Shown: one piece after another, positions 32,600-60,958 of the stretch
Numbering within the stretch: the stretch's first letter is position 1
How the letters are laid out: each line of letters opens with the position of its first letter
Source: a virus
Taxonomy: Duplodnaviria; Caudoviricetes
IMG/VR virus record: IMGVR_UViG_3300020036_003693
Span: 34 to 64,033 of that record
DNA length: 64,000 nucleotides
Reading direction: 5' to 3' (one strand)
Position numbers and translations under genes: made by a program
Notes under the pieces: model-generated
The model's database searches: none
The model's input: only the letters and a program-made list of their open reading frames with translations
What the model was told of the DNA's origin: nothing

Positions 32600-33830
32600 T
32601 CGGGTTGGTTCCTACTGGCCCCGAGCTACCACTGGGGATGCGGCCTCCCCGGGCTCCCGTGGGCGAAGTGGCCTGAGGGTTCAGGCGTTGTTGTGGTTTC
32701 AGTATTCGTTGGCGGACAGCATCACGTTGCCGGATCAGACCAGGTAACTGCTCTTTTGCTTCTTTGACACTCTTACGGTCATGGTCATCAGGGTTGTCCA
32801 CAATCTTCTGTAGACGCTTGATGTCATCATTGACAGTCTGAAGCAGTGCGTTGTTCGTGCGCAGCTCATCCGCCGTGACTATACTAGGGTCAGTCTTGGT
32901 CTCCACGCCCACCTGGGTAGCCTGGGTCTGCGCTTGTATCTGTGGAATGCGGACCTTGTTCACCTCGGTAGCGGACTTGTTCAGCTCAGTCCGTGAGGTA
33001 GTCTGGCCCATCTTGGCTTCGCTCTCACCGAGAACCATCTTCCCAGCTTCGCCATAGTAGAGGGCTTGTACCTCTGGGGACAGCGCATCAAACTGCTCAG
33101 GCCCCGCTCCGTAGAGGGCAACTGCCTTGTCGTAGTAGCCCTTGCTCACCGCTGCGCGCTTTGCCTGCTCAGCTCGTTGTGCCCGCTTCTCCGCGTTCAG
33201 CTCCGAGACAGTCTTGGCCTTCCCCAGGTTCAGCCGCTTGGATTTCCCGGATGCAGCATCTATCTGCATCAGGTACTTCTCGCCAGTTTCCTCGTCCTGG
33301 AACACCTCATTCACATCTCGCCACTTCCCTGGGTCCTGGAACTGGAACCTGCCTGTGTTGTCAACCGGGGGCGGGATAGAAGCCCCGGCTCCACCACCTG
33401 GCAGGGCTCCTGGTGCTCCTATCCCGAAACTCATGCCCTCTCCTGGGGGTGCCATGCTTGGCTGGGCTTGTTGCTGGGGGAGTTTGTCCTGGAACAACCG
33501 GTACATCTCGGTGATCATGCTGTCCGCTTTGTGCGGAGCCAGGATTTTATCTGACCAGTGCTTGTCTCCGGCTTGCTGGAGGTCCATCAGCAACTTCAGC
33601 TTCATCGGCGCATTGGTCTCGGTGTCAGGGATACTCTGGACCATCTTGAGGAGTTGGTCCCGAGTGGACTGCACCCGGCCCCGGGTTGCTGCGTTTGCCT
33701 GGACGGCGTAGTCATTGAGACCGGCAGCGAAGCCGCTCCAGCCACTCTCGTAGCGAGCTTCACCTCGGGCTGGGTCCCCGCTGGGACGTTGGATACCGAG
33801 TTGGTTGTAGTAATCTGTTGTGTCTGGCAT
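32574..33830 (-). CDS. internal virion (ejection) protein
   Basis: 418 aa Q/A/G-rich helical protein ending NDPLGIR; located in the ejection cluster. Confidence 0.65.
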   Translation of the reverse strand: MPDTTDYYNQLGIQRPSGDPARGEARYESGWSGFAAGLNDYAVQANAATRGRVQSTRDQLLKMVQSIPDTETNAPMKLKLLMDLQQAGDKHWSDKILAPHKADSMITEMYRLFQDKLPQQQAQPSMAPPGEGMSFGIGAPGALPGGGAGASIPPPVDNTGRFQFQDPGKWRDVNEVFQDEETGEKYLMQIDAASGKSKRLNLGKAKTVSELNAEKRAQRAEQAKRAAVSKGYYDKAVALYGAGPEQFDALSPEVQALYYGEAGKMVLGESEAKMGQTTSRTELNKSATEVNKVRIPQIQAQTQATQVGVETKTDPSIVTADELRTNNALLQTVNDDIKRLQKIVDNPDDHDRKSVKEAKEQLPGLIRQRDAVRQRILKPQQRLNPQATSPTGARGGRIPSGSSGPVGTNPNDPLGIRN

Positions 33831-33847
33831 AACGTACTAGCCTCTCC

Positions 33848-34579
33848 CTAGTCCATGTTGAAGTCGCCAATGCTCATGTTATAGCCTCCGCCACTGCCTC
33901 CACCCTTCTTGAATATCTGTTGAAGCACAGGCCCCAGGAGCTGGCCAAGCTGATACGCGCTCTGCCCAGTGCCTGCCTGGGTGTTACTCTGCTGCCCGGT
34001 GATGGAGTTCATCACGGTAGCGGAGCGGGAGGTAGCAGAGTTTCCGAACTGTAGCCCGGCATTGGTGTTCTGTCCTGCGGCCTGGTTGAGCTGACCAACG
34101 GCTTGACCTCGTGCAGTGGCGGTTGCGTTGAGTTGCTGGCCTGCCTTGGCAAAGTCGAACTCCATCCCGGCAGCGCCGCGACCGCCGCCCCGGGGTGCGA
34201 ACTGCGAGACATTCTGGAGCACCTGCTCGTAGGACTTGGAGATGCCTTCGCGCTGGGGGCCCACGAGCGCATTGAATGCCGTGGCGTCGTTACTGGAGAG
34301 AACCCCCCGGAGATATTTGTCTACACCTTGGGATTGGTCTATGCCGAGCTGCCGGAACAGTCTGGACATATCCATGTCCTCCCCGCTCCAGTTGATCAGG
34401 TTATCCTTGACTGGGCCCCAGGTGCCTTCCATGTTCTTTTGCAGAGAGGACTTCCCTCCTGTGAACAAGCCAACTAGACCTCCGATTCCTGCTCCGATAG
34501 CTGTTCCCCAGGGACCGGCAAAGCTGCCGATCTGGGCTCCTGCTGCTGCTCCCCCGAGTGCTCCACTTGCGCTTGGCAT
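33848..34579 (-). CDS. internal virion pilot/ejection protein with glycine zipper
   Basis: GALGGAAAGAQIGSFAGPWGTAIGAGIGGLVGLF followed by a Q/N/A-rich body. Confidence 0.75.
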   Translation of the reverse strand: MPSASGALGGAAAGAQIGSFAGPWGTAIGAGIGGLVGLFTGGKSSLQKNMEGTWGPVKDNLINWSGEDMDMSRLFRQLGIDQSQGVDKYLRGVLSSNDATAFNALVGPQREGISKSYEQVLQNVSQFAPRGGGRGAAGMEFDFAKAGQQLNATATARGQAVGQLNQAAGQNTNAGLQFGNSATSRSATVMNSITGQQSNTQAGTGQSAYQLGQLLGPVLQQIFKKGGGSGGGYNMSIGDFNMD

Positions 34580-39688: not shown

Positions 39689-41074
39689 TTACTTATCCGG
39701 TTGCGCTTCCTCATCCAGGTGCGCAGGTTTACGACGCCGTTGGAAATCCGGTTTCTCTTTGAGCAGCTCGAAGTTCCCGCTCTCTGCCTGGAGTTTCTTG
39801 TTGAATGCGATAGCCTGGAGGAGGAACCGTTGGTAGCTAGGGATGGTATCCACGAACTCCTGGCCGCCGAGCTTAAAGCAGGCGAGGTGGTGCGCCAGGT
39901 CCAGGAGTGTCTGGACGTGTTCGCTGCCCAGGTCCAGGTACTCGGCTTCGCTGGCAGGGATGGGTGCGTTCGCGGCCAGGTCAAAGGTAATGGAGTAGTC
40001 CTGGGTTGGACGCGGGTGCAGGGAGATCGTGCTCCAGGAGTGGAGGACGATGGAGCTGGGAACGCTAGTGTTGGCCTCGGTCTGGTTCCTCCAGTTTGGC
40101 TCCACTGCATCCATATCCCAGGCAGCAGAGACCTGGCATTCCACGTCGTTTATGTAACAGCGCATCAGCCCAGGAAAGACCCGCGAGAGCACGATGGCAT
40201 CCTTGAAGCGCATCATGCAGTAATCCGCACGGAACTTATCCCGGCGCTCACCCTCGGCGTTGAGCAGGGTGAACAGCGTGTAGTACTTCGCAGCCCAGGT
40301 AAAGTTCCCAGGGAGGTAGAGTGAGTTACCTGCGGTGGTGATCGTGGGAGCCAGGTCCAGGTTAGCAAGTACCTTCAGATAGTAGAGAGTCCCTGTGTCA
40401 CTCGGGGCTGGGGACATCTCGATCCGGCGTGGAGCGGTTGCCACAAGGGAGTAGGAATCCGGCACCAGGGCTGAGTCCTCCACGAGCCCTCGGACGTATT
40501 GATCCTGGCGGGCAAGGGGGAACTGTTGCGCTGGGGTGCTGGGTGGAGTAGCTGGGACTTCCCAGTAGACGGAGCGTAGGTTGATTGCATCTGCGGCGAG
40601 ATCATATTGGTTGATCGGAGTTGGGGAGACTACCTGGGAGTCTACCTCGGTGATAAAGGAGGTTGCCTGCTGGAGCGCGTTGACTGCGTGCTGGAGGGCA
40701 GTGACCAATACTGGCAGGTCATATTGCTCAGTGCCCGGCCAGGGGAGATTCCACGCAGTTATCGGAGGCTCCAGCAAGGAGTAGCAGATGGAGTTCACCA
40801 GGTCCCGGTCGAGCTGGGAGAGAGCCATCGGGTAGACCGTGGTAAGCCCCTGCTGGTAGTTGACGAACGGAGGAAGAAAGTAGTCTTTGTCAGCTATCGA
40901 AGGGGTGAAGCCTGCCCGCCGTACCCAGTAGCCGGTGAAGGCGGCCCAGGTACGGAGTGCCTCAGTGGTGTAGTCAAGTAGTTCCTCCCGGGAGAAGAAC
41001 ACGTTGGTTGGGTCATCCAGCCGATTGGAGAGCTGGTCTATGAATTGCCCCAGGGTTAGGATTTGATAAGGCAT
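39689..41074 (-). CDS. head-tail adaptor / tail tubular protein with an apparent internal duplication
   Basis: LSNRLDD...FFSREELLDYTTEAL motif; second similar module after QYDLPVLVTALQHAV. Confidence 0.65.
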   Translation of the reverse strand: MPYQILTLGQFIDQLSNRLDDPTNVFFSREELLDYTTEALRTWAAFTGYWVRRAGFTPSIADKDYFLPPFVNYQQGLTTVYPMALSQLDRDLVNSICYSLLEPPITAWNLPWPGTEQYDLPVLVTALQHAVNALQQATSFITEVDSQVVSPTPINQYDLAADAINLRSVYWEVPATPPSTPAQQFPLARQDQYVRGLVEDSALVPDSYSLVATAPRRIEMSPAPSDTGTLYYLKVLANLDLAPTITTAGNSLYLPGNFTWAAKYYTLFTLLNAEGERRDKFRADYCMMRFKDAIVLSRVFPGLMRCYINDVECQVSAAWDMDAVEPNWRNQTEANTSVPSSIVLHSWSTISLHPRPTQDYSITFDLAANAPIPASEAEYLDLGSEHVQTLLDLAHHLACFKLGGQEFVDTIPSYQRFLLQAIAFNKKLQAESGNFELLKEKPDFQRRRKPAHLDEEAQPDK

Positions 41075-41093: not shown

Positions 41094-41390
41094 CTAAGGA
41101 CGATCCATCTGTGACTGGTGCTGCCGGAGCTGGGATTGCTTCATGTCCACTAGCTGGGTCTCGATGTGTGACATCCTCAGGTTGATCAACTTCAGTTCAC
41201 CTTCTACTGATGCCTTCGAGGAGAACCGATCCTCGATCTTCTTCTCCAGACTAGCAGCCATATTAGCCAGGGCGTTGTTGATAGACAGTGAGAACCATCT
41301 ACCCCCGACCGCCATGATAAATGTCATCAAGCCGCACATGACTCCGATTGTTGACCAACTAATGTACATAAGAGATTCCTGGGGCACCAT
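41094..41390 (-). CDS. single-TM protein with coiled-coil (holin/XhlA-like)
   Basis: TM ISWSTIGVMCGLMTFIMAVGG followed by a coiled coil. Confidence 0.6.
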   Translation of the reverse strand: MVPQESLMYISWSTIGVMCGLMTFIMAVGGRWFSLSINNALANMAASLEKKIEDRFSSKASVEGELKLINLRMSHIETQLVDMKQSQLRQHQSQMDRP

Positions 41391-41435: not shown

Positions 41436-41894
41436 TTACTTCGGTGCAGGAGTTGCTGCCAGGGGAACTTGTCCTGGGAGCGGAGCCGGGACCAGGGTAT
41501 CCCCTTGGAGCTGGCAGCCTTCGCACTTGTGGGCCTTGCGCACGGAGTCGAACCAGGCGGTGAGCTTCTCATTGGCAGGTTTCAGACGGGATGTGACTCG
41601 AGCTTTGGCTCGGTAGTAAATGCCGAGAACTTTATCTTCGTCGTCCGTGGAGAGCATCTGGTCGAACAGGGTGCCGAGTTCCCGCTGGGCGGACTGGACT
41701 TCGGTGAGCAGTGAGTCCCGGGTGGTTTTCTCTGCGGCTGTGAGGGTCAGCGAGGAGGGCTTTCCTAACTTCTCTGACTTCTCTGACTTCGCTGGAGCTT
41801 CCTGAGCTTCCCCATAGTACAACAGGGAGCACGTGAGCAGCCCTGAGACCAGGACCAGAGTAAGTCGCGTGAGCAATGAGTATTTTGTATTCAT
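41436..41894 (-). CDS. exported coiled-coil protein with signal peptide/anchor
   Basis: MNTKYSLLTRLTLVLVSGLLTCSLLYYGEA-Q; helical body; CEGC; Pro-rich tail. Confidence 0.7.
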   Translation of the reverse strand: MNTKYSLLTRLTLVLVSGLLTCSLLYYGEAQEAPAKSEKSEKLGKPSSLTLTAAEKTTRDSLLTEVQSAQRELGTLFDQMLSTDDEDKVLGIYYRAKARVTSRLKPANEKLTAWFDSVRKAHKCEGCQLQGDTLVPAPLPGQVPLAATPAPK

Positions 41895-42005: not shown

Positions 42006-45000
42006 CTAGTTCACTACCAGAAACCCAAAGCTGGTCTCAGCAGTGCAGGCCGCAACCAGGTTGATGGTAAACGAGCCAGACGCAGGAACCACGTTCTTTA
42101 CGTAGCACGTTGTATCGTTGGTGCGCGTAGAGACATGAATAGTTGATGAAGTTGTCACCAAACTATTAGTGACTGTGACCGCGGTTCCTGCCGCCGCGAC
42201 GTTGACCGTACCAGCAGATTTGTTGATCGTCTGGTTGCCGGTTGTGCCACCTGCGGTGATGGTTTGGTCGGCGTAATACTGGCGAACGATCAAGTCTCGA
42301 TAGGTCGCCGCCGTGCCATTATTAATTTCAAGTCGGCCAGCCGCGTTCCGGCCAACACCTGAATCAGTCGAATTATTAGCAGGATCACTAGACGAATCCC
42401 AGCCAATAATTCCAGAGGCTTTACTGTACATCCCTGCGCCATTGAACAGCGGGCCGACGACATTGGCGATTGAGATTTGAAGCCGTGTGCCATTTCCGTA
42501 GAAGCCGGTAGAGGTCACTGACTGCCCAATAACCAAGCCTGGTGCGGCTTGTGTTCCTAACGGGGTCAAGACCTGCCCTGCACTGCTAAGCTGCAAGACA
42601 TCCGAACCGTAAGCTCCACCGTTAATTGAAAATGCGAATTTCCAAAGCCCGGATGGATTCGCTGTGCCTTGCACGGGTAGCACGTAATGAGCCGCTTTTA
42701 CTGACTGAGATGCCGCTACACTATTTGTTTTATATCCCTGCCCTTCCTGCACAAAAGCTGGGCTGACCTGTTGGTTTCCGCTGGTCGCCGCCGTTGAGTT
42801 AGTCTGTTTGAAGCTCTCGGTAAGAGTCGTACCCAAACTGGTAAGAGTTTGGGTGACGGCACTAGAGGCAAAATTCAGGTTGGATGCGCCGAACCCGCCC
42901 GCACCGTCGTTAGTTTGAATGTCGCCACTGCTGCCACCTGGCGAACCTCCGCCGCCACCGCCACAGGCCGCTCCCTGCGTGGTGATGTTGCCGTTGGCAT
43001 CAAACTTCGCGCAGTCGTTCGTTGCCGGAGCGGAGCCCGCGTAGGTGATGAACTTGGTGGTGTTCCCCTGGACGGTGCCGACTGAGGTCGCCTGACCGCC
43101 TCCGCCAATAACGGGCAGATTGCTGGTCAGGGCAGCCGCAGAGGTAACGCAGGTTGCACAGCCAATCGTGCCGGTTGTGGTGATGGTGCCACCCGTGATC
43201 GGGGATGTAGTGGCAATGCTGGTAACTGTGCCGGAGCCACCGCCCGCAGTCGCGCAAGGCGTCACGCGCCATCGGCTTGTCGCCGCGTCGTACTGTGCAT
43301 CCGCGCATTCGTTCGCGCCCAGCGTCAGGTCGGCTCCCGTGCTAACCGTGAAGCGATTCGCCGCCTTAGAAGACGCTGATTCATTGGCGAGGACAATGTT
43401 ATTACTGCCCACGTTCCAGATGCGGTGCATCTGGCCGCTGACTTTCGTGCTGATGGCAAAAGTCAGCCCTGTTACCGTGCGACTGGCATCACTGCTCCAT
43501 CGTTGGAAGTAACTGGTGTACGTCGGATCGTAGTCATTCTGATCCGCCGTAAGCTGGCTCGGCGTTGTGGCAATAAAACCGAACGTCGCGCCATTGGTTA
43601 AGTCCCCGTCTGGCGTGGAATCTGCGCCAACCACGCCGATGACGCGCTGTGCCGGTTTATTGAATCCGACCGCCACGCACGCGGGGCAGTCTTCCGCTGC
43701 CGTGTTATTGACGTTCCATGCGAGATAGCTATTGCCGGTAATGCCCACCAGTCCCGGCGTTCCATCACCTGCGCCAAGCATGATGTTTGGCGCGATCAAC
43801 GATAGCCACGATCCCCCGCCTTTCATCCCAATACCGACATTAGGCGCATAGGCAGTGTTGCTCACATCATAAAAAGCAATACTGGGTCTGTCGTACCGCA
43901 CAGACGAATCGAAAAAGACTTGCCCGACGTTCGGGTAGGTACCCTGCTTAGTGCGGATGTGCAGTGATACGTTAGAATCCGATCCTGTAACTTGAAATAT
44001 GTTTTTGGGGGTGGTTGCTGTTGCACTATTGGTCAACCCAAAATAGTTGACTCCGCCTGTCTCACTCGTAAACAACAACAGGCTGGGGTTCCCGCTCTCG
44101 GTTGACTGGATACCTGTCCCATCGTCAAATCGCAGTGGGAACCCATCCGAGTCAATCGCGCTGGTCCAGGGGGTCTGAGAACCTCCACCACCAGAGCAAG
44201 CCACATAAGAATATGTTCCACTCCCATTGTTGTTCAGGCAACCACTGGCATTCGCAGGCCAGCCCACAATACCGGTTGTCGGAGGCAAGCCGGTGGCGTT
44301 CGTCAGTGTCAAGCTGGAAGGAGTTCCACCAGCTCCATTGAACAGGACTGGAGCACCTGCACTGCCTATGTTCACCGCGAGCGCAGTTGCTACTCCGGTG
44401 CCGAGCCCACTCACCCCGGTGGAGATGGGTAGCCCGGTGGCGTTCGTGAGGGTACCTGAAGCAGGGGTTCCCAAGACTGGGGCAGTCAGGACTGGCGCGG
44501 TGAGGGTCTTGTTCGTAAGCGTCTGCGTGCTGGTGAGACCTACGAATGTGTCAGTGCCCGCAAGGACAGTCCAAACCGCGCTACCCAGGGCACCCGTGGT
44601 AGGCTGGATGGTGACGCTGCCCGAGGTGGCATTGCGAAGCAGTACCTTACCGACTACGCTACCAGCCACACCAACCTGGAGAGTGTCAGTTCCGTTGAAG
44701 GTGAGAGCCGCTACACCTGTGCAAGCACCTGCACCGTCGTTATACTGTAGAGCACCTGTGGGTCCAATGACTGTGCAGCCGGAGCCACCACCCCCGGTGC
44801 CTGCGTTTGTCCAGGTGTCCGTAGCCGAGCAGAAGTAAATTCCCTGCGTGGCGGCTGTCTTGATAAAGACATCGGTTACGCCTGGGCCCGCGTTGCAGGT
44901 GGCCGGAAGCGCATCACCGGAAGTGATTCGGTAAGCGGTGCCAGAGCTGAACTGAGCCGTGGCAGGGGTGGCCAGGCTCAGCAGTACCAGCAGCAGCGGG

Positions 45001-45026
45001 AGGAGATACCAGAACAGTTTCTTCAT
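42006..45026 (-). CDS. tail-fibre-like protein with Sec signal peptide
   Basis: MKKLFWYLLPLLLVLLSLATPATA-Q; G/T/S-rich fibre modules (TLTNKTL, GSGTVTSIAT); 16 Cys. Confidence 0.8.
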   Translation of the reverse strand: MKKLFWYLLPLLLVLLSLATPATAQFSSGTAYRITSGDALPATCNAGPGVTDVFIKTAATQGIYFCSATDTWTNAGTGGGGSGCTVIGPTGALQYNDGAGACTGVAALTFNGTDTLQVGVAGSVVGKVLLRNATSGSVTIQPTTGALGSAVWTVLAGTDTFVGLTSTQTLTNKTLTAPVLTAPVLGTPASGTLTNATGLPISTGVSGLGTGVATALAVNIGSAGAPVLFNGAGGTPSSLTLTNATGLPPTTGIVGWPANASGCLNNNGSGTYSYVACSGGGGSQTPWTSAIDSDGFPLRFDDGTGIQSTESGNPSLLLFTSETGGVNYFGLTNSATATTPKNIFQVTGSDSNVSLHIRTKQGTYPNVGQVFFDSSVRYDRPSIAFYDVSNTAYAPNVGIGMKGGGSWLSLIAPNIMLGAGDGTPGLVGITGNSYLAWNVNNTAAEDCPACVAVGFNKPAQRVIGVVGADSTPDGDLTNGATFGFIATTPSQLTADQNDYDPTYTSYFQRWSSDASRTVTGLTFAISTKVSGQMHRIWNVGSNNIVLANESASSKAANRFTVSTGADLTLGANECADAQYDAATSRWRVTPCATAGGGSGTVTSIATTSPITGGTITTTGTIGCATCVTSAAALTSNLPVIGGGGQATSVGTVQGNTTKFITYAGSAPATNDCAKFDANGNITTQGAACGGGGGGSPGGSSGDIQTNDGAGGFGASNLNFASSAVTQTLTSLGTTLTESFKQTNSTAATSGNQQVSPAFVQEGQGYKTNSVAASQSVKAAHYVLPVQGTANPSGLWKFAFSINGGAYGSDVLQLSSAGQVLTPLGTQAAPGLVIGQSVTSTGFYGNGTRLQISIANVVGPLFNGAGMYSKASGIIGWDSSSDPANNSTDSGVGRNAAGRLEINNGTAATYRDLIVRQYYADQTITAGGTTGNQTINKSAGTVNVAAAGTAVTVTNSLVTTSSTIHVSTRTNDTTCYVKNVVPASGSFTINLVAACTAETSFGFLVVN

Positions 45027-45055
45027 AAAGGTTATGTCCTTTCCCTTGGAGAGGG

Positions 45056-48000
45056 TTAGTTGTTGAAAACCATACAGGCAATCGCGGTGTTAGCTGTTGC
45101 GCCTGCGTTGCCTGTGATTGTGACGCTACCTGCGGCTGGTTCTGCGGCTACTGTGAGCAGGGTGGTGTCCTTGCGCTGAGGAGTGCAGATAACCAGGGAG
45201 CTGGTCGTGACGAAGGAGTTTGTGATAATTGCGTTGCTGGTGCCCGCTCCGATGACAAAGGAGAATAGGGCTTTGTTGATGGTCTGGTTCCCGGCAGTGG
45301 CAGAGATGGTTGCATCCGCGTGGTATTGACGAACTTTCAGGTCCAGGTAGTTGCCGAGAGCTGTGTCGTTTACTTCCAGTAGAGTGCTGTCGGCTCGGGA
45401 GAGCCCCACGTCGTTGAGAACCAGGTTCCCGCCTTCAAGGATAGCATCTGTGATAGTAAGCAGCCCGGTGTCGTCTATCTGGAGATTGGTAACATAGCTG
45501 GCAGCATCTATACGGGACTGAAGTTCCCACTGGGATGCGCCTGCGTTGGTGGTAGGGACCGTGCGGAATCTCCAGTCCACAGTGTGGGCAGAGCCATCGT
45601 AGGAGGAACCACGCTGGATAATGTTCGGAGAGGACCGGGTGCCGTTGCTGCCAAGTGCAGTCACGGTCATCAGGAGACGATCCGCGCCAGAGGTGGTGCC
45701 TCCGGTGATGGTCTGTTGGACCGTGAACGTGTTCGAGGTGCCGATGCCTGCGAGGGTATCAGAGATTGCTGGGAGCGTGAGCGTGGTGGAGTCAGTCCCG
45801 GTGAACGTGATCGAGTTATTAACCGTGAAGGTCTTGTTGTCTGCCAGAGTGAACGTGGCAGTAGTAGCCGGGTTGGTCAAGGTGAGCCGCGAGGCAACCA
45901 GGTCTACGCCACCGTTGCCCAGCAGAGCCTTCCCGCTGGTGAGCGTGCCCGTATTGGTGACAGTGCCTGAGCCACCGCTGCCTGCGAGCCACTCCGTGGT
46001 GATCGTGCTGCCTGTGAGGGCAGTGACCGCCAGGCGATCTCCGGCGACTGGAACGTCCGTTGGCCAGACCAGGGTGTAGGTTGTGGCGATGCTGTCAGCA
46101 GCCTTGGTTGCAAAGTAGTTGGTTCCGTTCGCGGCCAACTCTAGTTGGCGAATCTCCGTGGTGTTGCCAGAAGAGGTCGAGAATGGGGAGAACTGCGCAT
46201 AGCCGTCGTTCGGACGGAACTCAAAGACATTGCTTCCCTGGGCACTGGTAGCAGTTGTCTTACGAATCAGCAGAGACTGCCCTGCTGTGTCATAGCCCTG
46301 GAAGTTGAGACCCAGGGAGAGATAGAGCCGTGAGGTGTTGTTGTAGGCACCGTTGGACCAGGTGAGTCCAGGGCCCTGGGTTTGGTCTCCACCCGTGTTA
46401 GAGAAGATAATCCCGCCTTGGGAGCCCGGGCGACCGGCAGTGGAGTCTGTGATAATAGCGCTGCTGGTGTTGCTGCTACGCAGGGTGATGTTCACCTGGC
46501 CTGTGTTGGCGGACTCACCCAGGGTGAGTGAACGGTTCGTGTTGTCCCAGGTGAGCCGGGTGCTGCCGGTGAGCAGGTTCGCGCCGTCGCCATAGCCTAC
46601 GTAGGTGGAGGTGAGGGCTGCGCTCGCGGAGATCGCCGCCCACTCAGGAGCGGTTGCACCAGCGTTCATTCGGAGACCCTGGAGGGCGGTTCCCTTGGGG
46701 AGCCGGGTGAGCACGCCGCCAGCGCGGTAGTAGAGATCACCATCGGCGTCACTGCCCAAGGTCATAGTGACGCCACCCAGGACATTGGTACTGGAAGTAA
46801 GGGTCTTGTTGGTGAACGTGTCGGTTGTTGCTTTGGCTACCAGGGTGTCCGTGGAGGCTGGCAGGGTAAGCGTGTTGTTCGCTGCTGGGGCAGCCGGGGC
46901 AATCGTAGTAGTGAACGCTGTGGAAGAGTTCCGAAGCTGTAGTTGCCCGTTCTGCGATGTGGCAGTCCCCAGGATAATCGTGCTGCTGGCGATGTCCAGG
47001 ATCGCGTTCGCTGCACCGTCGAACAGACCAGCTCCATTGTTGTAGGGGATGCTGCCGGTTGTGCCCGGGGGAGTTGCTTCGATACGCCCCGTGCCTTTGG
47101 CAACGAGAGCTCCGGCAGTTGTCATCTCCACGCCGTTGCTACTGCCCTGGGCTGTGACGTTGAGCGGCTTGACTGTGGAGGAGGTGCCGGTGGCTACGTT
47201 GAGAAGGTAGCCGGTTCCGTTGCTGGAGTTTGCAGTGGCCAGGTTGAATAGGTTGTTGCTGCCCGTTCCGGTTGCCCAGGTGAACGTGGTGAGGAACGTC
47301 CCCATGTTCAGGGAGAGGTTCGCGGAGCCGGGGGCGGTGAGTGCGTCCCAGGCGGTCGCGGCGCTGCCCGCACAGGCTCCCCAGACTGGGGCGGCTCCGT
47401 TGGTGGAGGTGAGGCAGAGCGTGCCTACCCCACCGGCTGCGGTGAACAGGATAGGCCCAGTGCCGTTGCCGTAGGCCACGCCGTTGGCGGTCGCGGTGGT
47501 GAAGTTGTGCGGCCCGGCGAGTGAGAGCGTGACGGCTCCTGTGGCCGCACTGGCGGTTATCTGGTTGGCCGTGCCCGCTAGGGAGGTGACTCCCGCCCCG
47601 CCGCCGGACCCGCAAGCGGAGCCGGTACGTGTGATAGCCCCGAGGCTGCTGATCTGTAGACACTCGTTACCGGCCCCGGGCAGGGAGTCAGGCAGGGAGA
47701 TCGTGATCTGCGCCAGGGACGTACTCTGTAGGATCGTGGAGTTGTTGTTGATCGTGTTGTGCAGCTCGAAGAATCGCGAGTGCATTGAGAGGGTCGGATT
47801 GATAGAGTTACCTAATTGTGCGGTAGCAACACCATTAGGTATCAAGTCCCCAAGGGTGTCCACAGTCCAGCGGCGCAGCCCATTCTGATAAATATCGAAT
47901 GGATGCGTGGTCATGGTACCGACAAAGCCACGATCAGGTCCGCCTTGTAAAGTACCGAGACGCACACTTATTGGAAACGCAGGGCCGGTATCTGTTACCA

Positions 48001-49900
48001 GTAGATGCGTATTAAGTGCCGAGGATAGACTTAGCGTAGGACTTGAGCCTCCTTGCGAATTTACGAACCTGGCAGGACCTCCGGTTAGGTCCAAGGCATA
48101 GGTGCTATTGCCAAACGTGTTTATACCCAGGTTGCCGGTAAGGGTGTGGTGCGATGCAGTCAGGTCAAGTTTTAGGTTCTGGCCCACAGCAAAGGCCACT
48201 CCGGCACCCCCAGGAAAGTACATGCCATTACCTGCATTAGTGGTGTTTGAATACGTAGGACGACCGGCGGTTCCATCTTGTAAGCGTATCCGTCCTGCGT
48301 CACCTGTGAACGAGGTTGCACCTACTAAATCTCCGACAAGATTGGAAGTTTCGATAGCACCGAACTTGGCCCGGGAGATAGTAACAGCGGAGTTGCTACT
48401 GCCTGGAACCAACATTGACACGTTGGTTGGGAAGCTGACAGTTGTGGCCAGGCCGGTGTCGTAGTAGGCAGTTATAGTCTGAGTACCTATAACACTGAAT
48501 GGAGTACCTCTGGAATGAATCGGCTGTCCGTTGGTCCAAGCACCGGCTACCAGGATTATTCTGTTATTACCCGTCCAAACACCCTGACCAGTTGGTGGGT
48601 CCACGAAGCCGTATCGAACCGCAATATGGTTTCCTGCGGTGTAGGTGGTAAAAGCATTACCACTGAAATTAGCCCAACTGTAATCCCTGAAGTAAATTCC
48701 ATAGTCTCCAAAGGATTCTATATTGTTGCCGTTTAGTACACCGCGAAAATAAGAGTCATAACCATCAGCCCCGGCTTCGGCCCCGAATAGTCCCCAGATA
48801 GCAGAAGCCGGTGAGTCCGGGTCCATGCCATTGTTACCGATCATGGTAACATCCCCACCGAATATGCGGTAGCCAACCCTGTTAGCCTCAACAGTTTGAA
48901 CGTAACAACGTACCAGGGTAGTGGTGTTGCCGCCTTGGATTTCTATGTGGTTGTCGCCGATCTCGTCGGTAGTGACGCCTTCGATCAGTGTTGTGAACTG
49001 CCCGGGCATCCACAGCCCCTTGCCGCCACAGTTACTGATTTTGACATTGCGGATCGTAAAGAACGCAGATTCACGATCCGGGATGAGGGAGCCAAAGACC
49101 GCGCAATGCCCTGCGGAGCCGGAGGTTTTACCCTGACCCTGGATGCCGATCTCTTCGATGGTGGTGTATAGAGTTAATCCCGGGCCTGTTACATTAAAGA
49201 CTGGGGAGTTGGGGATGCGCGCTTTTAGGATCGAGCGCAGAGGTCCGTCGCCGACGATGGTGATTCCCTGGAGGGATTGGGTGATCTCGTCGGTGAGATA
49301 GGTCCCTGCCGGGAAGTAGACGATCTTACCATTGGTACCGGCGGCTGCGGTAAGCGCGTTCTGGATACAGACTGAGTCGTTTGTTACGCCGTCTCCCGCG
49401 CAACCGAAGGAGACCTTTGCGTTGATTGCGCCCCGGTAGTCCGTGATCGCCGCCCCGGTACCGGAGAGTCCCCAATCGCCGTAGGTGACGGGGGCCGGGT
49501 AAGCGCCGGGGCCGGTGCCGCCGGAGAAGCGGATGTCGTAGCGCCCACTGCCTGCGTAGAAGAACCATTCCCCTGCGGAGTTCGCGGTGAAAGGGTTCGC
49601 CTTGGGAGTTGGCGTGCTGGCACGATCTGAGTAGATTGTCGCTGGGGTGAGTGTGCCTGCGATGTACACAGTCACGGTACAGCTTGGGACTACCATCTCA
49701 GCTTTCTCACTGGAGGAAGCCCCTGCGGTGCGAATGTTCTGGCCTCCGCGTGTGCAGAGTCCCTGGAGCTTGTCCAGAGTCTGAGCGGCTGCCTGAGTGG
49801 ACAGTAACGAGAAGAGTAGTACCAACAGGGGTAGCAGGGGTAGCAACGCAGGCAACCCAGGGAGCCTCACTCTCCCTGGGTTCGCTTGCGACCTTATCAT
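45056..49900 (-). CDS. tailspike/fibre with beta-helix (pectate-lyase-like) domain and Sec signal peptide
   Basis: Start revised to ATG 49900 because the upstream in-frame starts lie in the promoter boxes; signal ...LLVLLFSLLSTQAAA-Q; GCAGDGVTNDSVCIQNAL...VYFPAGTYL; N-terminal TPATIYSD...NPFTANSAG tailspike attachment-like domain. Confidence 0.82.
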   Translation of the reverse strand: MIRSQANPGRVRLPGLPALLPLLPLLVLLFSLLSTQAAAQTLDKLQGLCTRGGQNIRTAGASSSEKAEMVVPSCTVTVYIAGTLTPATIYSDRASTPTPKANPFTANSAGEWFFYAGSGRYDIRFSGGTGPGAYPAPVTYGDWGLSGTGAAITDYRGAINAKVSFGCAGDGVTNDSVCIQNALTAAAGTNGKIVYFPAGTYLTDEITQSLQGITIVGDGPLRSILKARIPNSPVFNVTGPGLTLYTTIEEIGIQGQGKTSGSAGHCAVFGSLIPDRESAFFTIRNVKISNCGGKGLWMPGQFTTLIEGVTTDEIGDNHIEIQGGNTTTLVRCYVQTVEANRVGYRIFGGDVTMIGNNGMDPDSPASAIWGLFGAEAGADGYDSYFRGVLNGNNIESFGDYGIYFRDYSWANFSGNAFTTYTAGNHIAVRYGFVDPPTGQGVWTGNNRIILVAGAWTNGQPIHSRGTPFSVIGTQTITAYYDTGLATTVSFPTNVSMLVPGSSNSAVTISRAKFGAIETSNLVGDLVGATSFTGDAGRIRLQDGTAGRPTYSNTTNAGNGMYFPGGAGVAFAVGQNLKLDLTASHHTLTGNLGINTFGNSTYALDLTGGPARFVNSQGGSSPTLSLSSALNTHLLVTDTGPAFPISVRLGTLQGGPDRGFVGTMTTHPFDIYQNGLRRWTVDTLGDLIPNGVATAQLGNSINPTLSMHSRFFELHNTINNNSTILQSTSLAQITISLPDSLPGAGNECLQISSLGAITRTGSACGSGGGAGVTSLAGTANQITASAATGAVTLSLAGPHNFTTATANGVAYGNGTGPILFTAAGGVGTLCLTSTNGAAPVWGACAGSAATAWDALTAPGSANLSLNMGTFLTTFTWATGTGSNNLFNLATANSSNGTGYLLNVATGTSSTVKPLNVTAQGSSNGVEMTTAGALVAKGTGRIEATPPGTTGSIPYNNGAGLFDGAANAILDIASSTIILGTATSQNGQLQLRNSSTAFTTTIAPAAPAANNTLTLPASTDTLVAKATTDTFTNKTLTSSTNVLGGVTMTLGSDADGDLYYRAGGVLTRLPKGTALQGLRMNAGATAPEWAAISASAALTSTYVGYGDGANLLTGSTRLTWDNTNRSLTLGESANTGQVNITLRSSNTSSAIITDSTAGRPGSQGGIIFSNTGGDQTQGPGLTWSNGAYNNTSRLYLSLGLNFQGYDTAGQSLLIRKTTATSAQGSNVFEFRPNDGYAQFSPFSTSSGNTTEIRQLELAANGTNYFATKAADSIATTYTLVWPTDVPVAGDRLAVTALTGSTITTEWLAGSGGSGTVTNTGTLTSGKALLGNGGVDLVASRLTLTNPATTATFTLADNKTFTVNNSITFTGTDSTTLTLPAISDTLAGIGTSNTFTVQQTITGGTTSGADRLLMTVTALGSNGTRSSPNIIQRGSSYDGSAHTVDWRFRTVPTTNAGASQWELQSRIDAASYVTNLQIDDTGLLTITDAILEGGNLVLNDVGLSRADSTLLEVNDTALGNYLDLKVRQYHADATISATAGNQTINKALFSFVIGAGTSNAIITNSFVTTSSLVICTPQRKDTTLLTVAAEPAAGSVTITGNAGATANTAIACMVFNN

Positions 49901-50012
49901 CTCGTTCTTCGCGTCGGCTGTGGCTGCGGTTCCATTGTTCACAAACTTCGTGGTAGGAGCAGACCCGGCAGATTTTGTATCGCGGCGTTGGTTGCTGATC
50001 GGTAGTGAGTGC

Positions 50013-50041
50013 ATAGTAAAGGTTCTCACAAAAATTGTCAA
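50013..50041 (-). promoter_or_regulatory. sigma70 promoter
   Basis: TTGACA-17 bp-TACTAT on the - strand; a second TTGACA at 50081-50076. Confidence 0.75.
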
Positions 50042-50163: not shown

Positions 50164-50493
50164 CTAGGGCTTCGGCCACATCACGCTACCGGCGAACGGA
50201 GAATCCAGGGCTCCATTGGTAGCTCCGCCACCACCACTGCCCTGGTCCATGCCGCCGAAGCCAAAGGGATCACCACCGTTGAATGGGGAGTCGAGCTGGC
50301 AGGGGGCAGCACTGTCAGTGGCTTGGACAAATCCCTCACCACGCCAGGCGACCTTGACGTTCTCAGGCTGCGTGACAGGGGTGTTGAGCGCGGGCGTGGC
50401 GATTCCCGGGAGGGGGGTGGTAAGTCCGCCTTGCTGGGGGGATGCGACGGGCCAGCCGAGTTCTCCGAAGTCTGTGTTAAGTTGTCCTGGCAT
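50164..50493 (-). CDS. low-complexity G/P protein with repeated LDSPF-like motif
   Basis: AGGAG SD; LNTDF, LTTPL, LNTPV, LDSPF x2. Confidence 0.65.
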   Translation of the reverse strand: MPGQLNTDFGELGWPVASPQQGGLTTPLPGIATPALNTPVTQPENVKVAWRGEGFVQATDSAAPCQLDSPFNGGDPFGFGGMDQGSGGGGATNGALDSPFAGSVMWPKP

Positions 50494-50592: not shown

Positions 50593-51693
50593 CTAGTCAT
50601 TGAAAAGCCCTGCCATAAGGTTGATGTCGTGTACCTGAGCGTAGGCGGCTCCCATGACCCAGGGGAACTTGCCACCCAGGAGGTCCTTGGTACGAGACTC
50701 GTAGTAGGCTTGGTCCTCGCGGTACGCCTCAAGGTAGAGCCGGTCCCGCTCCTGAGTAGCTTGAGAGATGCTTGCTGCCATGATGTTCGCCTGAGCACGA
50801 TTGACCAGGCCACCGACCTTTTGGCGCAATGCCCAGGAGCACGCTTTCACCAGAGCAGTCTGGATAACGAACTCCGGGGAGAGCGTCTGGGGGATAAGTG
50901 ATGTTCGGTCATCCGCGAGAGGCCAGTCACCAAGTTGGTACAGGCAGTCGTAGATGTATGTGCCCGTGGGGGCAGGCCAGAGCTCGTGCCGGGTGGTGCC
51001 TGGGGGGATGCCAGTAGTTCCGCCAACTGCTGCTCCAGCGAACTGGGTGGTCGTGGGCGGCATCTGACAGAAGTGGGTAGCGGTGCCGGTTGCATCTCTG
51101 CGGGGGTCTCGCTTGTCCAGCCATTCCTGGGGTTTGTCCAGGATCAGGGGAAAGTTGTTGGACTTATCCCGGACACAGAGATAGCCTTTGAAGTTCGGAC
51201 TCTCGATAGGGTCTGTGCCTACCGGCTGCTCCAGGTAAGGAGGCAAGAAGTAGGCTTGGATGATCCTGGAGGAGTAGGTCCCGCTGGCCCCGGGGTAGCG
51301 GAAGTTGATGTCGAGGGTGTCTACTCCATCCCAGGCTCGAATCTCGAAGACGTTCCCACCAGAGACTCCGATCTTCACCTGACGGCGACCGATTGGGGTT
51401 TCGTAAGCTGGGAGCGAGTTGATTGCTGCTGCCAGGGTGGAGTCTACTACGATCTGCTGGGAGCCCCGGGTAACTGTGATGTCACCTTGGAGCACCTCGG
51501 GCACGACTATCTCTCCGAGTTGCAGCAGCCACGACCACTGGTGCCGATCCGCGATCTCCCGCATTGCATACCGGATGTATTGCTTCGCCAGGGGAACTGG
51601 GAAGTAATCACCGATTTCAGCTCGGAGCCGGGAGTGGAGATCGTAGAAGGTAGTTGGCATAGTAGTGGTGGCCAAGAAGGAGACCTCGGGCAT
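50593..51693 (-). CDS. head-tail adaptor protein
   Basis: AKQYIRYAMREIADRHQWSWL motif; position after the capsid genes. Confidence 0.65.
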   Translation of the reverse strand: MPEVSFLATTTMPTTFYDLHSRLRAEIGDYFPVPLAKQYIRYAMREIADRHQWSWLLQLGEIVVPEVLQGDITVTRGSQQIVVDSTLAAAINSLPAYETPIGRRQVKIGVSGGNVFEIRAWDGVDTLDINFRYPGASGTYSSRIIQAYFLPPYLEQPVGTDPIESPNFKGYLCVRDKSNNFPLILDKPQEWLDKRDPRRDATGTATHFCQMPPTTTQFAGAAVGGTTGIPPGTTRHELWPAPTGTYIYDCLYQLGDWPLADDRTSLIPQTLSPEFVIQTALVKACSWALRQKVGGLVNRAQANIMAASISQATQERDRLYLEAYREDQAYYESRTKDLLGGKFPWVMGAAYAQVHDINLMAGLFND

Positions 51694-58497: not shown

Positions 58498-60684
58498 CTA
58501 TTCTAGTTCTCCTTCCTCGATGTCGGTGTCCGCCTCAGCGTAACTCACCGAGGCTCCTCCTGTAAAGTATTCCAGTGGATCATCCGGGTCCCGTGTGGGG
58601 AGCAGCAGCCCCCGGGAGCATGGGAAGCTGAGCAGCTCGTGGGCGTCGTCCAGGACCCGCCTCCACGCGGGCGTCTCGGCCTGGTAGATGTCAATCCCGT
58701 GGAGACATATCAGGCAGATTATGAATGCGAAGATTCTGTCATCATGGGAGCCAGCCCCGGCTTCTAGTCGTATCTTGGTCTGGAGCTGGTTCACCACGAA
58801 GTCACGGAGCTCGTCCACCAGCCAGGGTGAGTTAAGCTGTGCCCACTGGCCCTTCACGATCAAGAGCGTCCACTGGATTAGCTGATCTCGGGACTTGGGC
58901 GTGGTCTCCCAGCCGTACTTCGGGGTGAGCAGCTTGAGGCGGGAGTCTGGGCGCTGCCGGATGTAGATATTCGGGTAGCCACGCTTGCGGAGTTCCATCA
59001 GGGCTGCGTCTCCGCCCCGGTTGGTCTCTGGGGCTGCAAGGGCCCAGGTGTACTCACCGGAGTAGACGGGAGAGAATAGCTTTAGAAGTGCTAACCACAC
59101 TGGCCATATCTCCAGGGTAGCTACCTTGTCGGTTGCGAGCTCAGCGACGATCTCTGCTGGGGAAAGTGGGGTTCCCTTGCGTACTACGGTGAGCACAGTA
59201 CGATCCAGTCCCTTGCCTTCAGCTCCGTCCAGAGAGACTCCATACTCGTTCCCTGGGATCGGGAGTTCCCACACGACTAACCTGTCTAGGCCATCCGCGT
59301 GGGGTTCGCGCACCGGGGTGAATGTGCAGGTGTAGCACTTGTCCTCGCCGGAGTCCCAGTACATTGTGCGAAGCCCTATTTCTCCAGTGGTCTCACTGCT
59401 CTCCGGCCAGAGTGGAGCCGGGATGCCCTCTCCCTGGAGACCATATACCCTAAGAGGGGGCTTTGCCTTGTCCTGGTACTGCTGGACTAGCTCGATGGAG
59501 AATACCATCCCGTGGCGGCTCTGGAATGCCTCCAGGTCATTCGCTGGCATCTCTGAGTAGAACTTCGCCAGGGCCTCCTCGCCTTCGATCTTCGCCTCGG
59601 AGTACTGTACCCAGTAGAACCACATCTGCTCCAGCGGCATCCGCCAGTCCAGACCCAGGGCTCTCCATAGTACCCGTTGGGAGAGCACATACTCCCGGGC
59701 CTTCTGTGCGTGGTTGATGATAAACTCTGGAGGATTCCACCCGGTTGGGATTGGTGCTACCACCTCTACCCAGGTCCTCGTGGGGTAGATGTCCGTCCCC
59801 ATGTACCAGGGCAGGAACACCGGGCAGAACTCTCCGATCCCGCTGCTCCAGCGGCGTTGGTTGTTCTTCCACAGCTCGTGCCAATAGTCGTTGCGGCCGT
59901 TGGCAGTGCTCTCCAGCATACCAAAGGTAAGTGGAGTGGGATGCCGCGCTTTGAGCAGAGAAGCGTCAATTAGTGCTTTGGGCTTGTCGAAGTCAGGGAT
60001 TTCAGACAGATGGTAGTAGTTGATGGTATCCCCACGGGAGATACCACTTGTTTGTCTCCCGTGCTGCACTGAGATGGTCATGTTCCTCTTGGCGGACTCG
60101 ATGAACACTTCCCCGGACTTATACTCTTTAATGTCATCCGGCACCAGCCACCACGGTTGGCCGAGCAGAGAGCGTTGCATCATCTCAATGAACTTCCAGG
60201 TTTTGTCCTCGTCGCTGGAGGCGAGCGCACCGCTGGTGTTCGGGATGAACAAGGCCCGGTGGAGACCTCTGGAGGTGGAGTCCGTGGTGATCCCAAGCTG
60301 GCGCGCCTTCAGGGATTGTATCTCAATCGGTCTTCCCTGGGCTTGGAGGTCACAGTAGACTGAGTTCAGGGCTTCCTGGGCGAAGTTGCGCCGGAAGGGA
60401 ATCATCTGCTGGGTATTGGAGTCCCTGATCTTGTGGTAGTTGCTTGCCCAGTGGTCATAGTCCAGGGCGCACAACAACCTCTCGTTGCGGATGAAGGCAC
60501 TCTCGTCCGGGAGCAGTGGGGAGGTGAGCTCTCCTGTCCAGCGGCCCTTGGTGTCCTTGATTGCTTTGCGGTCCAGTACCTCCACGCACGCGGCGATGTA
60601 GTCCGGCGTGTAGTAGGTGATCGGGCGCGAGGTGCGCTGCTGGACGTTGTGGATGTTGCGAGCTACGGTTTCTCGGTTATACAA
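58498..60684 (-). CDS. terL: terminase large subunit
   Basis: LKARQLGIT Walker A, HLSE Walker B, ESTANG, SLDGAEG...DRT and HDDRIFA RNase H-like residues. Confidence 0.92.
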   Translation of the reverse strand: MYNRETVARNIHNVQQRTSRPITYYTPDYIAACVEVLDRKAIKDTKGRWTGELTSPLLPDESAFIRNERLLCALDYDHWASNYHKIRDSNTQQMIPFRRNFAQEALNSVYCDLQAQGRPIEIQSLKARQLGITTDSTSRGLHRALFIPNTSGALASSDEDKTWKFIEMMQRSLLGQPWWLVPDDIKEYKSGEVFIESAKRNMTISVQHGRQTSGISRGDTINYYHLSEIPDFDKPKALIDASLLKARHPTPLTFGMLESTANGRNDYWHELWKNNQRRWSSGIGEFCPVFLPWYMGTDIYPTRTWVEVVAPIPTGWNPPEFIINHAQKAREYVLSQRVLWRALGLDWRMPLEQMWFYWVQYSEAKIEGEEALAKFYSEMPANDLEAFQSRHGMVFSIELVQQYQDKAKPPLRVYGLQGEGIPAPLWPESSETTGEIGLRTMYWDSGEDKCYTCTFTPVREPHADGLDRLVVWELPIPGNEYGVSLDGAEGKGLDRTVLTVVRKGTPLSPAEIVAELATDKVATLEIWPVWLALLKLFSPVYSGEYTWALAAPETNRGGDAALMELRKRGYPNIYIRQRPDSRLKLLTPKYGWETTPKSRDQLIQWTLLIVKGQWAQLNSPWLVDELRDFVVNQLQTKIRLEAGAGSHDDRIFAFIICLICLHGIDIYQAETPAWRRVLDDAHELLSFPCSRGLLLPTRDPDDPLEYFTGGASVSYAEADTDIEEGELE

Positions 60685-60958
60685 GATTGCTCCCTGTTAG
60701 CTTATCCATAGTCACACACTGCTCCCACTTCCCATCCCGAAAGTACCCGCGCACCACAACCTCCGCAGGGGCGTAGCGACCCGCGAGTAGCTCATCCAGG
60801 AAGACTATCTCCCCGGTGTGGATGTGCAGCCCGGAGATTATCGGACGACACTTGATCACGGACGCGGTTGGCAGGGATGGCAGCACGATGAGCACGCTTG
60901 CGCCGACTGTGGCTGCGGTGAATGCTTTGAGAAAATTTCTTCTGCTAGTCTGGATCAT
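60677..60958 (-). CDS. small protein with twin-arginine-like signal
   Basis: GGAGGG SD; MIQTSRRNFLKAFTAATVGASVLIVLP. Confidence 0.65.
   Translation of the reverse strand: MIQTSRRNFLKAFTAATVGASVLIVLPSLPTASVIKCRPIISGLHIHTGEIVFLDELLAGRYAPAEVVVRGYFRDGKWEQCVTMDKLTGSNLV

Follow-up and report, generated by a model that had tools for sequence, protein, structure and literature searches.

In this study we describe two adjacent tail-appendage genes in a window of 64,000 nucleotides (positions 34 to 64,033 of the IMG/VR record IMGVR_UViG_3300020036_003693, Caudoviricetes), the products of which both start with leaders that, judged from their sequences, look like genuine Sec/signal peptidase I (SPI) signals. 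The window covers nearly all of the 64,033-bp record, for which a completeness of 97% is estimated, and is a near-complete 64-kb genome of a podovirus (short-tailed phage). The two genes are referred to here as the spike (1614 amino acids) and the fibre (1006 amino acids). Both proteins are most likely receptor-binding appendages, the spike being a tailspike of depolymerase type that has a long fibre shaft, and the other protein a fibre. Directly seen are the leaders themselves, which are conserved in relatives and confined to distal tail genes, the anchor fold behind the spike leader and a link between the leader and a cysteine pair. Our preferred reading, to which we assign a probability of roughly 0.55, is that the two proteins are exported through Sec, cleaved before a glutamine, folded with disulfides in the periplasm and docked onto particles at or after lysis.

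Leaders were called with one fixed rule of our own, not with SignalP; it asks for an n-region of net positive charge, a hydrophobic stretch free of charged residues and small residues at positions -3 and -1. By this rule both proteins have the n/h/c shape of a Sec/SPI signal with small residues at -3 and -1. This bears out the first-pass annotation of this DNA, which had reported two adjacent fibre-type genes of 1614 and 1006 amino acids, each starting with a type I signal peptide and A-x-A before Gln; both open reading frames (ORFs) lie where it had placed them. The fibre leader is 25 residues long, with two lysines, a 16-residue leucine-rich core and the boundary A-T-A|Q. The spike leader counts 40 residues from the ATG at 49900 or 30 from the GTG at 49870, and carries three arginines, a core rich in leucine and proline and the boundary A-A-A|Q. 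The 1614-residue form starts at the ATG; the ORF-finder start at 50041 is off by 47 codons and sits within a promoter-like TTGACA-17-TACTAT site, a type of site that is not more frequent in this region than in shuffles of it. The fibre starts at the ATG at 45026, about 10 nt behind a AAGGGAAAGGA ribosome-binding site and 29 bp past the spike stop. Met116 of the long ORF was considered as the spike start and rejected: it lies inside the conserved domain, and is implausible because that domain and its first invariant cysteine, which such a start would remove, begin upstream of it. Between the core of each leader and the conserved domain that follows there is no in-frame start, and no leaderless isoform can therefore arise by internal initiation.

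The genes that carry leaders form a restricted set. In the window, the rule flags three of 18 genes in the structural module on the minus strand, namely the spike, the fibre and a 152-residue gene after the fibre (orf152), and none of the head, adaptor-like, nozzle-like and internal virion genes. For comparison with cultured phages we can draw on Tunturi 1 and 2 (PP887698, PP885685), Acidobacteriota podophages which are the nearest cultured relatives. These Tunturiibacter phages are the only GenBank phages that the portal matches (27.7% identity over 84%), and the large terminase (terL), the major capsid protein (MCP) and the adaptor match Tunturi_1 too; at 23-28% identity they are distant relatives. 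In five related loci, four metagenomic and that of Tunturi_1, almost all fibre- and spike-type genes that follow the adaptor are flagged by the rule, and no head, packaging, portal or adaptor gene is; upstream of the spikes, the sole other flagged gene is a small membrane protein in locus L008. In the window, the four metagenomic loci and Tunturi_1, leaders are confined to distal tail genes and small neighbouring genes. In Tunturi_1, gp12 has the same leader and Cys-pair domain as the spike, gp13, gp14, gp16 and gp17 also start with leaders, and gp1 to gp11 do not. The leader of gp14, annotated as a tail spike, lies behind an internal methionine, 11 codons into the annotated ORF, and gp17 is annotated as a virion structural protein. 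The paper describing the Tunturi phages makes no mention of signal peptides and reports no virion proteomics (PMC11924767).

A leader of the same shape stands at the start of nearly all homologues of the N-terminal third of the spike. Among the closest relatives (P0008, P0009, P0011, P0012 and L011) the leader sequences are unrelated and conservation starts exactly after A|Q, which means that the leader is free to vary while the mature N-terminus is kept. Because the shape is retained, the sequence diverges and conservation begins at the predicted cleavage site, the leaders look like genuine signals. An exhaustive HMMER search with spike residues 41-165 returned 3,313 cluster representatives at E <=1e-3 and 1,563 at E <=1e-10, and an alignment of eleven members shows Cys49 and Cys74 (pre-protein numbering) and about 25 other positions of the domain to be invariant. 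We classified 156 members, made up of the 150 best representatives of this search and six further homologues from a first search. Whether homologues keep the signal peptide was a check proposed in the first-pass annotation, and most do: 116 of the 156 bear a leader, and 112 of these 116 have both cysteines. The leaderless members (37/156) start with a methionine two to five residues ahead of the conserved block, so that they begin where the leader-bearing proteins are predicted to be cut. Both cysteines are found in only six of the 37, three of which resemble leaders truncated by the gene caller; among the other 31, neither cysteine is present in 20, the second only in 10 and the first only in one. 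Three members fit neither leader class. By counts, the association of leader and cysteine pair has a Fisher p of 4e-22.

The cysteines of the two proteins show a similar regularity along their whole length. In the fibre, 16 of 16 fall into eight neighbour pairs 3-22 residues apart (permutation p 3.5e-5), and in the spike 12 of 13 form six local pairs, with a permutation p of 7.5e-5 after the unpaired C332 was dropped post hoc. As controls, the terminase gave p 0.60 and a 1359-residue protein of the structural module p 0.07. Local pairing of this kind is typical of proteins outside the cytoplasm. The three internal virion proteins (243, 418 and 2599 amino acids; 24800-34579, minus strand) contain no cysteine in 3,260 residues, against about 1% in neighbouring structural proteins. 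Passage in unfolded form through the tail and the periplasm may be the reason.

The domain that follows the spike leader was modelled with AlphaFold2 from 31 sequences (mean predicted local distance difference test score, pLDDT, 88) and is an all-beta sandwich. In the PDB, Foldseek places it closest to the N-terminal chains of two tail spikes, from the tail complex of cyanopodophage Pan3 and from the tail machine of cyanophage Pam1 (E ~6e-3, probability 1.00). Re-alignment of the structures gave Z scores of 8.5 for Pan3 (root-mean-square deviation 2.4, 80 residues), 7.7 for Pam1, 7.4 for Sf6 and 7.1-7.2 for the head-binding domain of the P22 tailspike (1lkt, 2vky). BFVD holds 18 viral matches of tailspike or depolymerase type at E <1e-3, and the profile match of the domain to the 9vyg tail spike is weak (E 0.36). 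By its modelled fold the domain thus resembles the particle-binding domains of tailspikes. Its place in the sequence, at the mature N-terminus and ahead of a depolymerase beta-helix that starts at residue 160, fits such a role, and in leaderless homologues the protein itself begins there. The first-pass annotation had quoted a stretch of this domain, which is indeed present, and had likened it to podovirus attachment domains; the likeness holds for the best structural matches, and generic sandwiches, to which we return below, score alike. The pectate-lyase-like right-handed beta-helix it had proposed behind this domain was recovered by Pfam above the gathering scores, with PF12708 at 54 bits (cut-off 27, E 2.6e-14) and PF13229 at 26.7 bits (cut-off 25.9, E 5e-6). 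The helix is a probable polysaccharide depolymerase on the strength of these matches.

In Pfam, the spike N-terminal domain, the N-terminal handle of the fibre and both C-terminal domains match no family at E 0.01 or gathering score. Spike and fibre share a C-terminal domain of about 118 residues (42% identical over 119 residues, E 3e-18). Both proteins end in it without a hydrophobic tail and neither has a C-terminal membrane anchor of the Ff type, as read from the translations. A search with the fibre handle returned one homologue, and the same module stands behind the leader in P0030, P0104, P0098, P0124, P0020, P0023 and a 534-residue protein of L006. The repeats of the fibre match thousands of ordinary tail fibres; a scan of viral contigs with the fibre gave matches in the repeat region only, and one with the MCP gave none. 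In the window, L011, L008 and Tunturi_1, the spike has the adaptor-like 366-residue gene as its immediate upstream neighbour, and in L009 a gene for 340 amino acids occupies this position. In the sole leaderless relative with a readable, typed upstream gene, an SU10_adaptor-like gene ends three bases before the spike gene. In a leaderless relative (L021), a gene for a 73-residue glutaredoxin (498-719) shares eight bases with the beginning of the spike gene.

Taken into a mechanism, spike and fibre would be made as pre-proteins, each of which Sec would carry over the host inner membrane, and SPI would cleave them ahead of the glutamine. Folding and trimerisation would follow in the periplasm, where the local cysteine pairs can become disulfides, and a small helper, for which orf152 is the candidate, would probably be exported alongside. 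Heads with portal, adaptors, nozzle and internal proteins, all of them leaderless, would be assembled in the cytoplasm. Docking through the N-terminal anchor domain of the spike would take place once holin lesions or lysis join the compartments. In P22-like phages, assembly ends with addition of the tailspike, a step that can be carried out in vitro with purified components, so late docking is feasible in principle. Export had already been suggested in the first-pass annotation; what can now be put behind that suggestion are the signal-like leaders, the fold of the anchor domain, the retention of the leader in most homologues and the fact that no other fibre-type gene was found, and export itself keeps the conditional form given here. 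We see about even odds for the wider proposal that two-compartment virion assembly is common to a large group of podophages, most of them uncultured and Tunturi 1 and 2 among them, with heads and core tails formed in the cytoplasm and all receptor-binding appendages sent through Sec, trimmed to glutamine, disulfide-bonded and docked at the holin stage.

Several observations weigh against export and late docking. The leader calls come from our own rule of thumb. The spike leader is long (30-40 residues) with a hydrophobic core of about 21 residues, and for this reason might be an uncleaved anchor. The Z scores of the tailspike N-terminal domains (7-8.5) are also reached by generic beta-sandwiches, CnaB and transthyretin among them, so the fold by itself is suggestive and no proof. 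The fibres of Tunturi_3, a podovirus of the same host strain as Tunturi_1/2, and of Tunturi_4, a siphovirus of another Tunturiibacter species, have no leaders, and the leader route is therefore not demanded by the host. We know of no tailed-phage precedent for a cytoplasmic particle that meets periplasmic spikes only at lysis, and such a meeting may not be efficient. There is also the question of kinship. In the best tree of the 110-residue domain the leaderless members fall into 22 clades with poor support, and only three to five independent pairs lie on supported branches; a single clade of the 31 leaderless pair-less members is not rejected (approximately unbiased test, AU, p 0.30). Given these two results, the split in leader and cysteines could go back to very few events, even one. 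The link is strong by counts and its phylogenetic independence is not yet established. One signal survives this caveat: leader-bearing members span clusters at <=50% identity, yet keep both cysteines almost without exception, in contrast to the patterns of decay in the leaderless ones.

Among the alternatives, the appendages could be assembled in the cytoplasm, the default route of all studied tailed phages, with the N-terminus acting as a pro-peptide or membrane-targeting segment that is cut by another protease, or with only a minor fraction exported. The atypical length of the spike leader would sit well with this, as would a leader/cysteine split that happened once. Left unexplained, however, are a textbook n/h/c shape that ends in A-x-A, leader sequences that diverge freely, the local cysteine pairs and a near-invariant pair limited to leader-bearing members, and no leaderless form could be made from an internal start. 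We regard this route as unlikely.

A different possibility is that spike and fibre are exported and never join the virion, acting as depolymerases or adhesins, free or on the cell surface, with a promoter of their own, while another tail part binds the host. Lambda Lom or Bor and free phage depolymerases are models for exported proteins that are not part of the particle. A promoter-like site does lie ahead of the spike, the beta-helix could work as a soluble enzyme and the nozzle-like protein of 1359 amino acids could in principle bind the host. Against this, the N-terminal domain matches the particle-binding domains of tailspikes and forms the extreme N-terminus of leaderless tailspike homologues, the adaptor-like gene is found directly upstream in leader-bearing and leaderless phages alike, and the fibre repeats are those of ordinary tail fibres. 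Moreover, no fibre-type gene besides spike and fibre was found in the 97%-complete genome, in agreement with the first-pass annotation, which had seen no other obvious receptor-binding gene. A role outside the virion seems improbable to us, and we give similarly little credit to the idea that the leaders are uncleaved signal-anchors which tether the appendages at the periplasmic face of the inner membrane until they are picked up or cut free during lysis. The core of the spike leader has a length that would suit an anchor, and the open upstream extensions of close relatives would lengthen the n-region. But the leader of the fibre has the canonical shape and is short, the boundary at which sequence conservation begins keeps its small residues at -3 and -1, and leaderless homologues start at that boundary. 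Start-codon artefacts or chance hydrophobic N-termini, which the misplaced ORF-finder start and an in-frame methionine after the leader might suggest, can be practically dismissed, as the conserved domain with its first invariant cysteine starts upstream of that methionine, the fibre start has a good ribosome-binding site, and leaders are present in most of the classified family and on every fibre-type gene of several related phages.

Assembly of tailed phages is taught as wholly cytoplasmic, and in the literature we found no report of Sec leaders on the fibres or tailspikes of tailed phages. The P22-type tailspikes (P22 gp9, Sf6 gp14, Pam1, Pan3) resemble the spike in having an N-terminal beta-sandwich followed by a beta-helix depolymerase (Z 7.2-8.5), but have no leader and fold in the cytoplasm, whereas the spike has a Sec-type leader, a conserved cysteine pair, an extra fibre-like shaft of about 900 residues and an added C-terminal domain. 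Tunturi 1 and 2 share with the window the gene order and the leader-bearing tail genes, at the distance given above. Phage proteins known to use host Sec include the signal-peptide and signal-arrest-release (SAR) endolysins and the spanins; these are lysis factors and not virion parts, and spanin-like and lipoprotein-like ORFs are present in the window too. In the filamentous Ff phages, g3p, g6p and g8p have Sec signal sequences and periplasmic disulfides and are joined to the particle outside the cytoplasm, the receptor-binding protein included (PMC8310372). However, Ff phages belong to an unrelated realm, their proteins are membrane-anchored and they are extruded without lysis, while here an icosahedral, DNA-filled head is predicted to form in the cytoplasm. 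The nearest account in print concerns Porphyromonas phages, in which signal peptides on capsid, spanin and unknown genes were read as envelope modifiers and no tail parts were named (Matrishin 2023, PMC10367356). Those genes have SPI-type leaders that expose an N-terminal glutamine, as the leaders in the window do by our reading.

If our reading is true, the last assembly step would hinge on the Sec system, signal peptidase and disulfide machinery of the host. Receptor-binding proteins could be stabilised by disulfides, and the envelope would contain a depolymerase ahead of lysis. Expression of such tailspikes for work on enzymes or host range would then need periplasmic folding, and annotation pipelines should keep leader-bearing proteins as possible structural ones. 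The window adds a link to the cultured Tunturi phages, a leaderless control phage on the same host strain and an explicit kinship test of the leader/cysteine link. The link to Tunturi 1/2 makes the idea directly testable, with the leaderless Tunturi_3 as a natural control.

The leaders of spike, fibre and orf152 all read A|Q, and each thus has Gln at +1 of the SPI site in the manner of the Bacteroidetes Q-rule; glutamine is likewise at +1 in most predicted leaders of Tunturi_1 (gp12, 13, 16, 17), L006 and L010, all sites having been placed by eye. According to this rule, glutamine is exposed N-terminally after SPI cleavage (Bochtler 2018, PMC5837995; Matrishin 2023, PMC10367356), and it has been reported at 77% for Ignavibacterium album. 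The A|Q sites recall the Bacteroidetes rule, yet the cultured relatives infect Acidobacteriota, and we found no statement in the literature on Acidobacteriota and the Q-rule.

A scan of genome contigs yielded one 3.7-kb contig, in a metagenome-assembled genome (MAG) of Ignavibacteriales, and portal fragments of that related phage are found in the same MAG. The fragments of a close relative in this MAG, G001 (L011, L015 and L016, which are C60, C70 and C63), are 65% identical in the adaptor, 70% in the portal and 81% in the spike N-terminal domain. In 75 kb of the MAG, glutamine is at +1 in three of six cleavable leaders, too few to judge. The core of the MAG has 51-52% GC compared with 56-58% in the phage contigs, with a tetranucleotide correlation of 0.29, and because of these differences the binning is weak evidence on the host. 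The phage fragments probably came into this MAG through a binning artefact, or because phage and host were co-abundant. Parts of the sequence (shares 0.22-0.43) occur in DNA runs from wastewater and activated-sludge metagenomes of two studies; no RNA runs containing it are listed.

Table 1. Positions in the window of the spike, the fibre, their parts and neighbouring features.
Feature	Position	Strand	Description
Tailspike-fibre hybrid gene (spike), 1614 aa	45056..49900	-	leader, N-terminal anchor domain, pectate-lyase-like beta-helix, long fibre-like shaft, C-terminal domain common with fibre
Spike leader, residues 1-40	49781..49900	-	three Arg, Leu/Pro-rich core, A-A-A before Gln; GTG 49870 as alternative start
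Spike N-terminal beta-sandwich, putative anchor domain, residues 41 to ~150	49451..49780	-	invariant Cys49-Cys74 pair; AlphaFold2 model, fold matches
Right-handed beta-helix, pectate-lyase-like, residues 160-418 by Pfam	48647..49423	-	PF12708, PF13229, phrog_2234 tail spike
C-terminal domain of ~118 aa common with fibre, spike copy	45059..45412	-	42% identity over 119 aa
Tail fibre gene (fibre), 1006 aa	42006..45026	-	leader, small Cys-bridged N-terminal handle, poly-Gly, fibre repeats, shared C-terminal domain
Fibre leader, residues 1-25	44952..45026	-	canonical type I signal-peptide shape, ends A-T-A before Gln
Fibre N-terminal handle, Cys44-Cys66, then Gly run	44787..44951	-	same module behind leader in relatives
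Shared C-terminal domain, fibre copy	42009..42365	-	alignment with spike C-terminus
orf152, 152-aa helical protein	41436..41894	-	leader with G-E-A before Gln, C-terminal CxxC; directly after fibre
Sigma-70-like site TTGACA-17-TACTAT	50013..50041	-	upstream of spike; 10/12 matches
Conserved 109-aa gene	50164..50493	-	between adaptor-like gene and spike; protein conserved in L011
SU10-adaptor-like protein, 366 aa (orf366), no leader	50593..51693	-	conserved directly upstream of spike; candidate docking partner
Second SU10-adaptor-like protein, 461 aa (orf461), no leader	39689..41074	-	likeness in ESM Atlas

The plus strand of the genome carries replication genes up to about 23 kb, including a family A polymerase, a Dda-like helicase, a Sak4-like protein and a dCTP deaminase. 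The structural module runs on the minus strand from 60.7 kb down to 24.8 kb, in the order large terminase, portal, a 362-residue scaffold-like gene, major head protein, small genes, the 366-residue protein, the conserved gene for 109 amino acids, spike, fibre, two small genes, the 461-residue and 1359-residue proteins and, at the end, the three internal-virion-type proteins of 243, 418 and 2599 amino acids. In the ESM Atlas, the 366- and 461-residue proteins are both similar to PF24175, the adaptor family of podophage SU10 (feature scores 0.96-0.98), with a template modelling (TM) score of 0.67-0.77 for the structure of the former; PDB sequence searches with orf366, orf461 and orf1359 gave no matches. 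The 109-residue protein is rich in glycine and proline, and its gene is readily overlooked because a longer out-of-frame ORF overlaps it.

Small leader-bearing genes come after the fibres in L010 and Tunturi_1 as well as in the window, and the one in L010 (16986-17399) also has a CxxC. From its sequence, orf152 is a candidate exported assembly factor. It is followed by a 98-residue protein (41094-41390, minus strand) with an N-terminal transmembrane segment and a coiled coil, and the two might serve as an exported helper in assembly or form a spanin-like pair.

A wider scan of the window for leaders gave two further ORFs, one Tat-like (twin-arginine translocation) and one lipoprotein-like. The former, of 93 residues (60677-60958, minus strand), overlaps the start of the large terminase and begins with the twin-arginine motif S-R-R-N-F-L-K and a hydrophobic stretch; its Pfam TAT_signal match (E 6.6e-4, 19.9 bits) is under the cut-off of 22.7. 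No endolysin domain was recognised in the window. At the end of the structural operon, the lipoprotein-like ORF of 170 residues (23704-24216, minus strand), with a leader ending in A-A-C, adjoins a 90-residue ORF with two apparent transmembrane segments (24237-24509, minus strand), and these two are possible lysis or exclusion genes.

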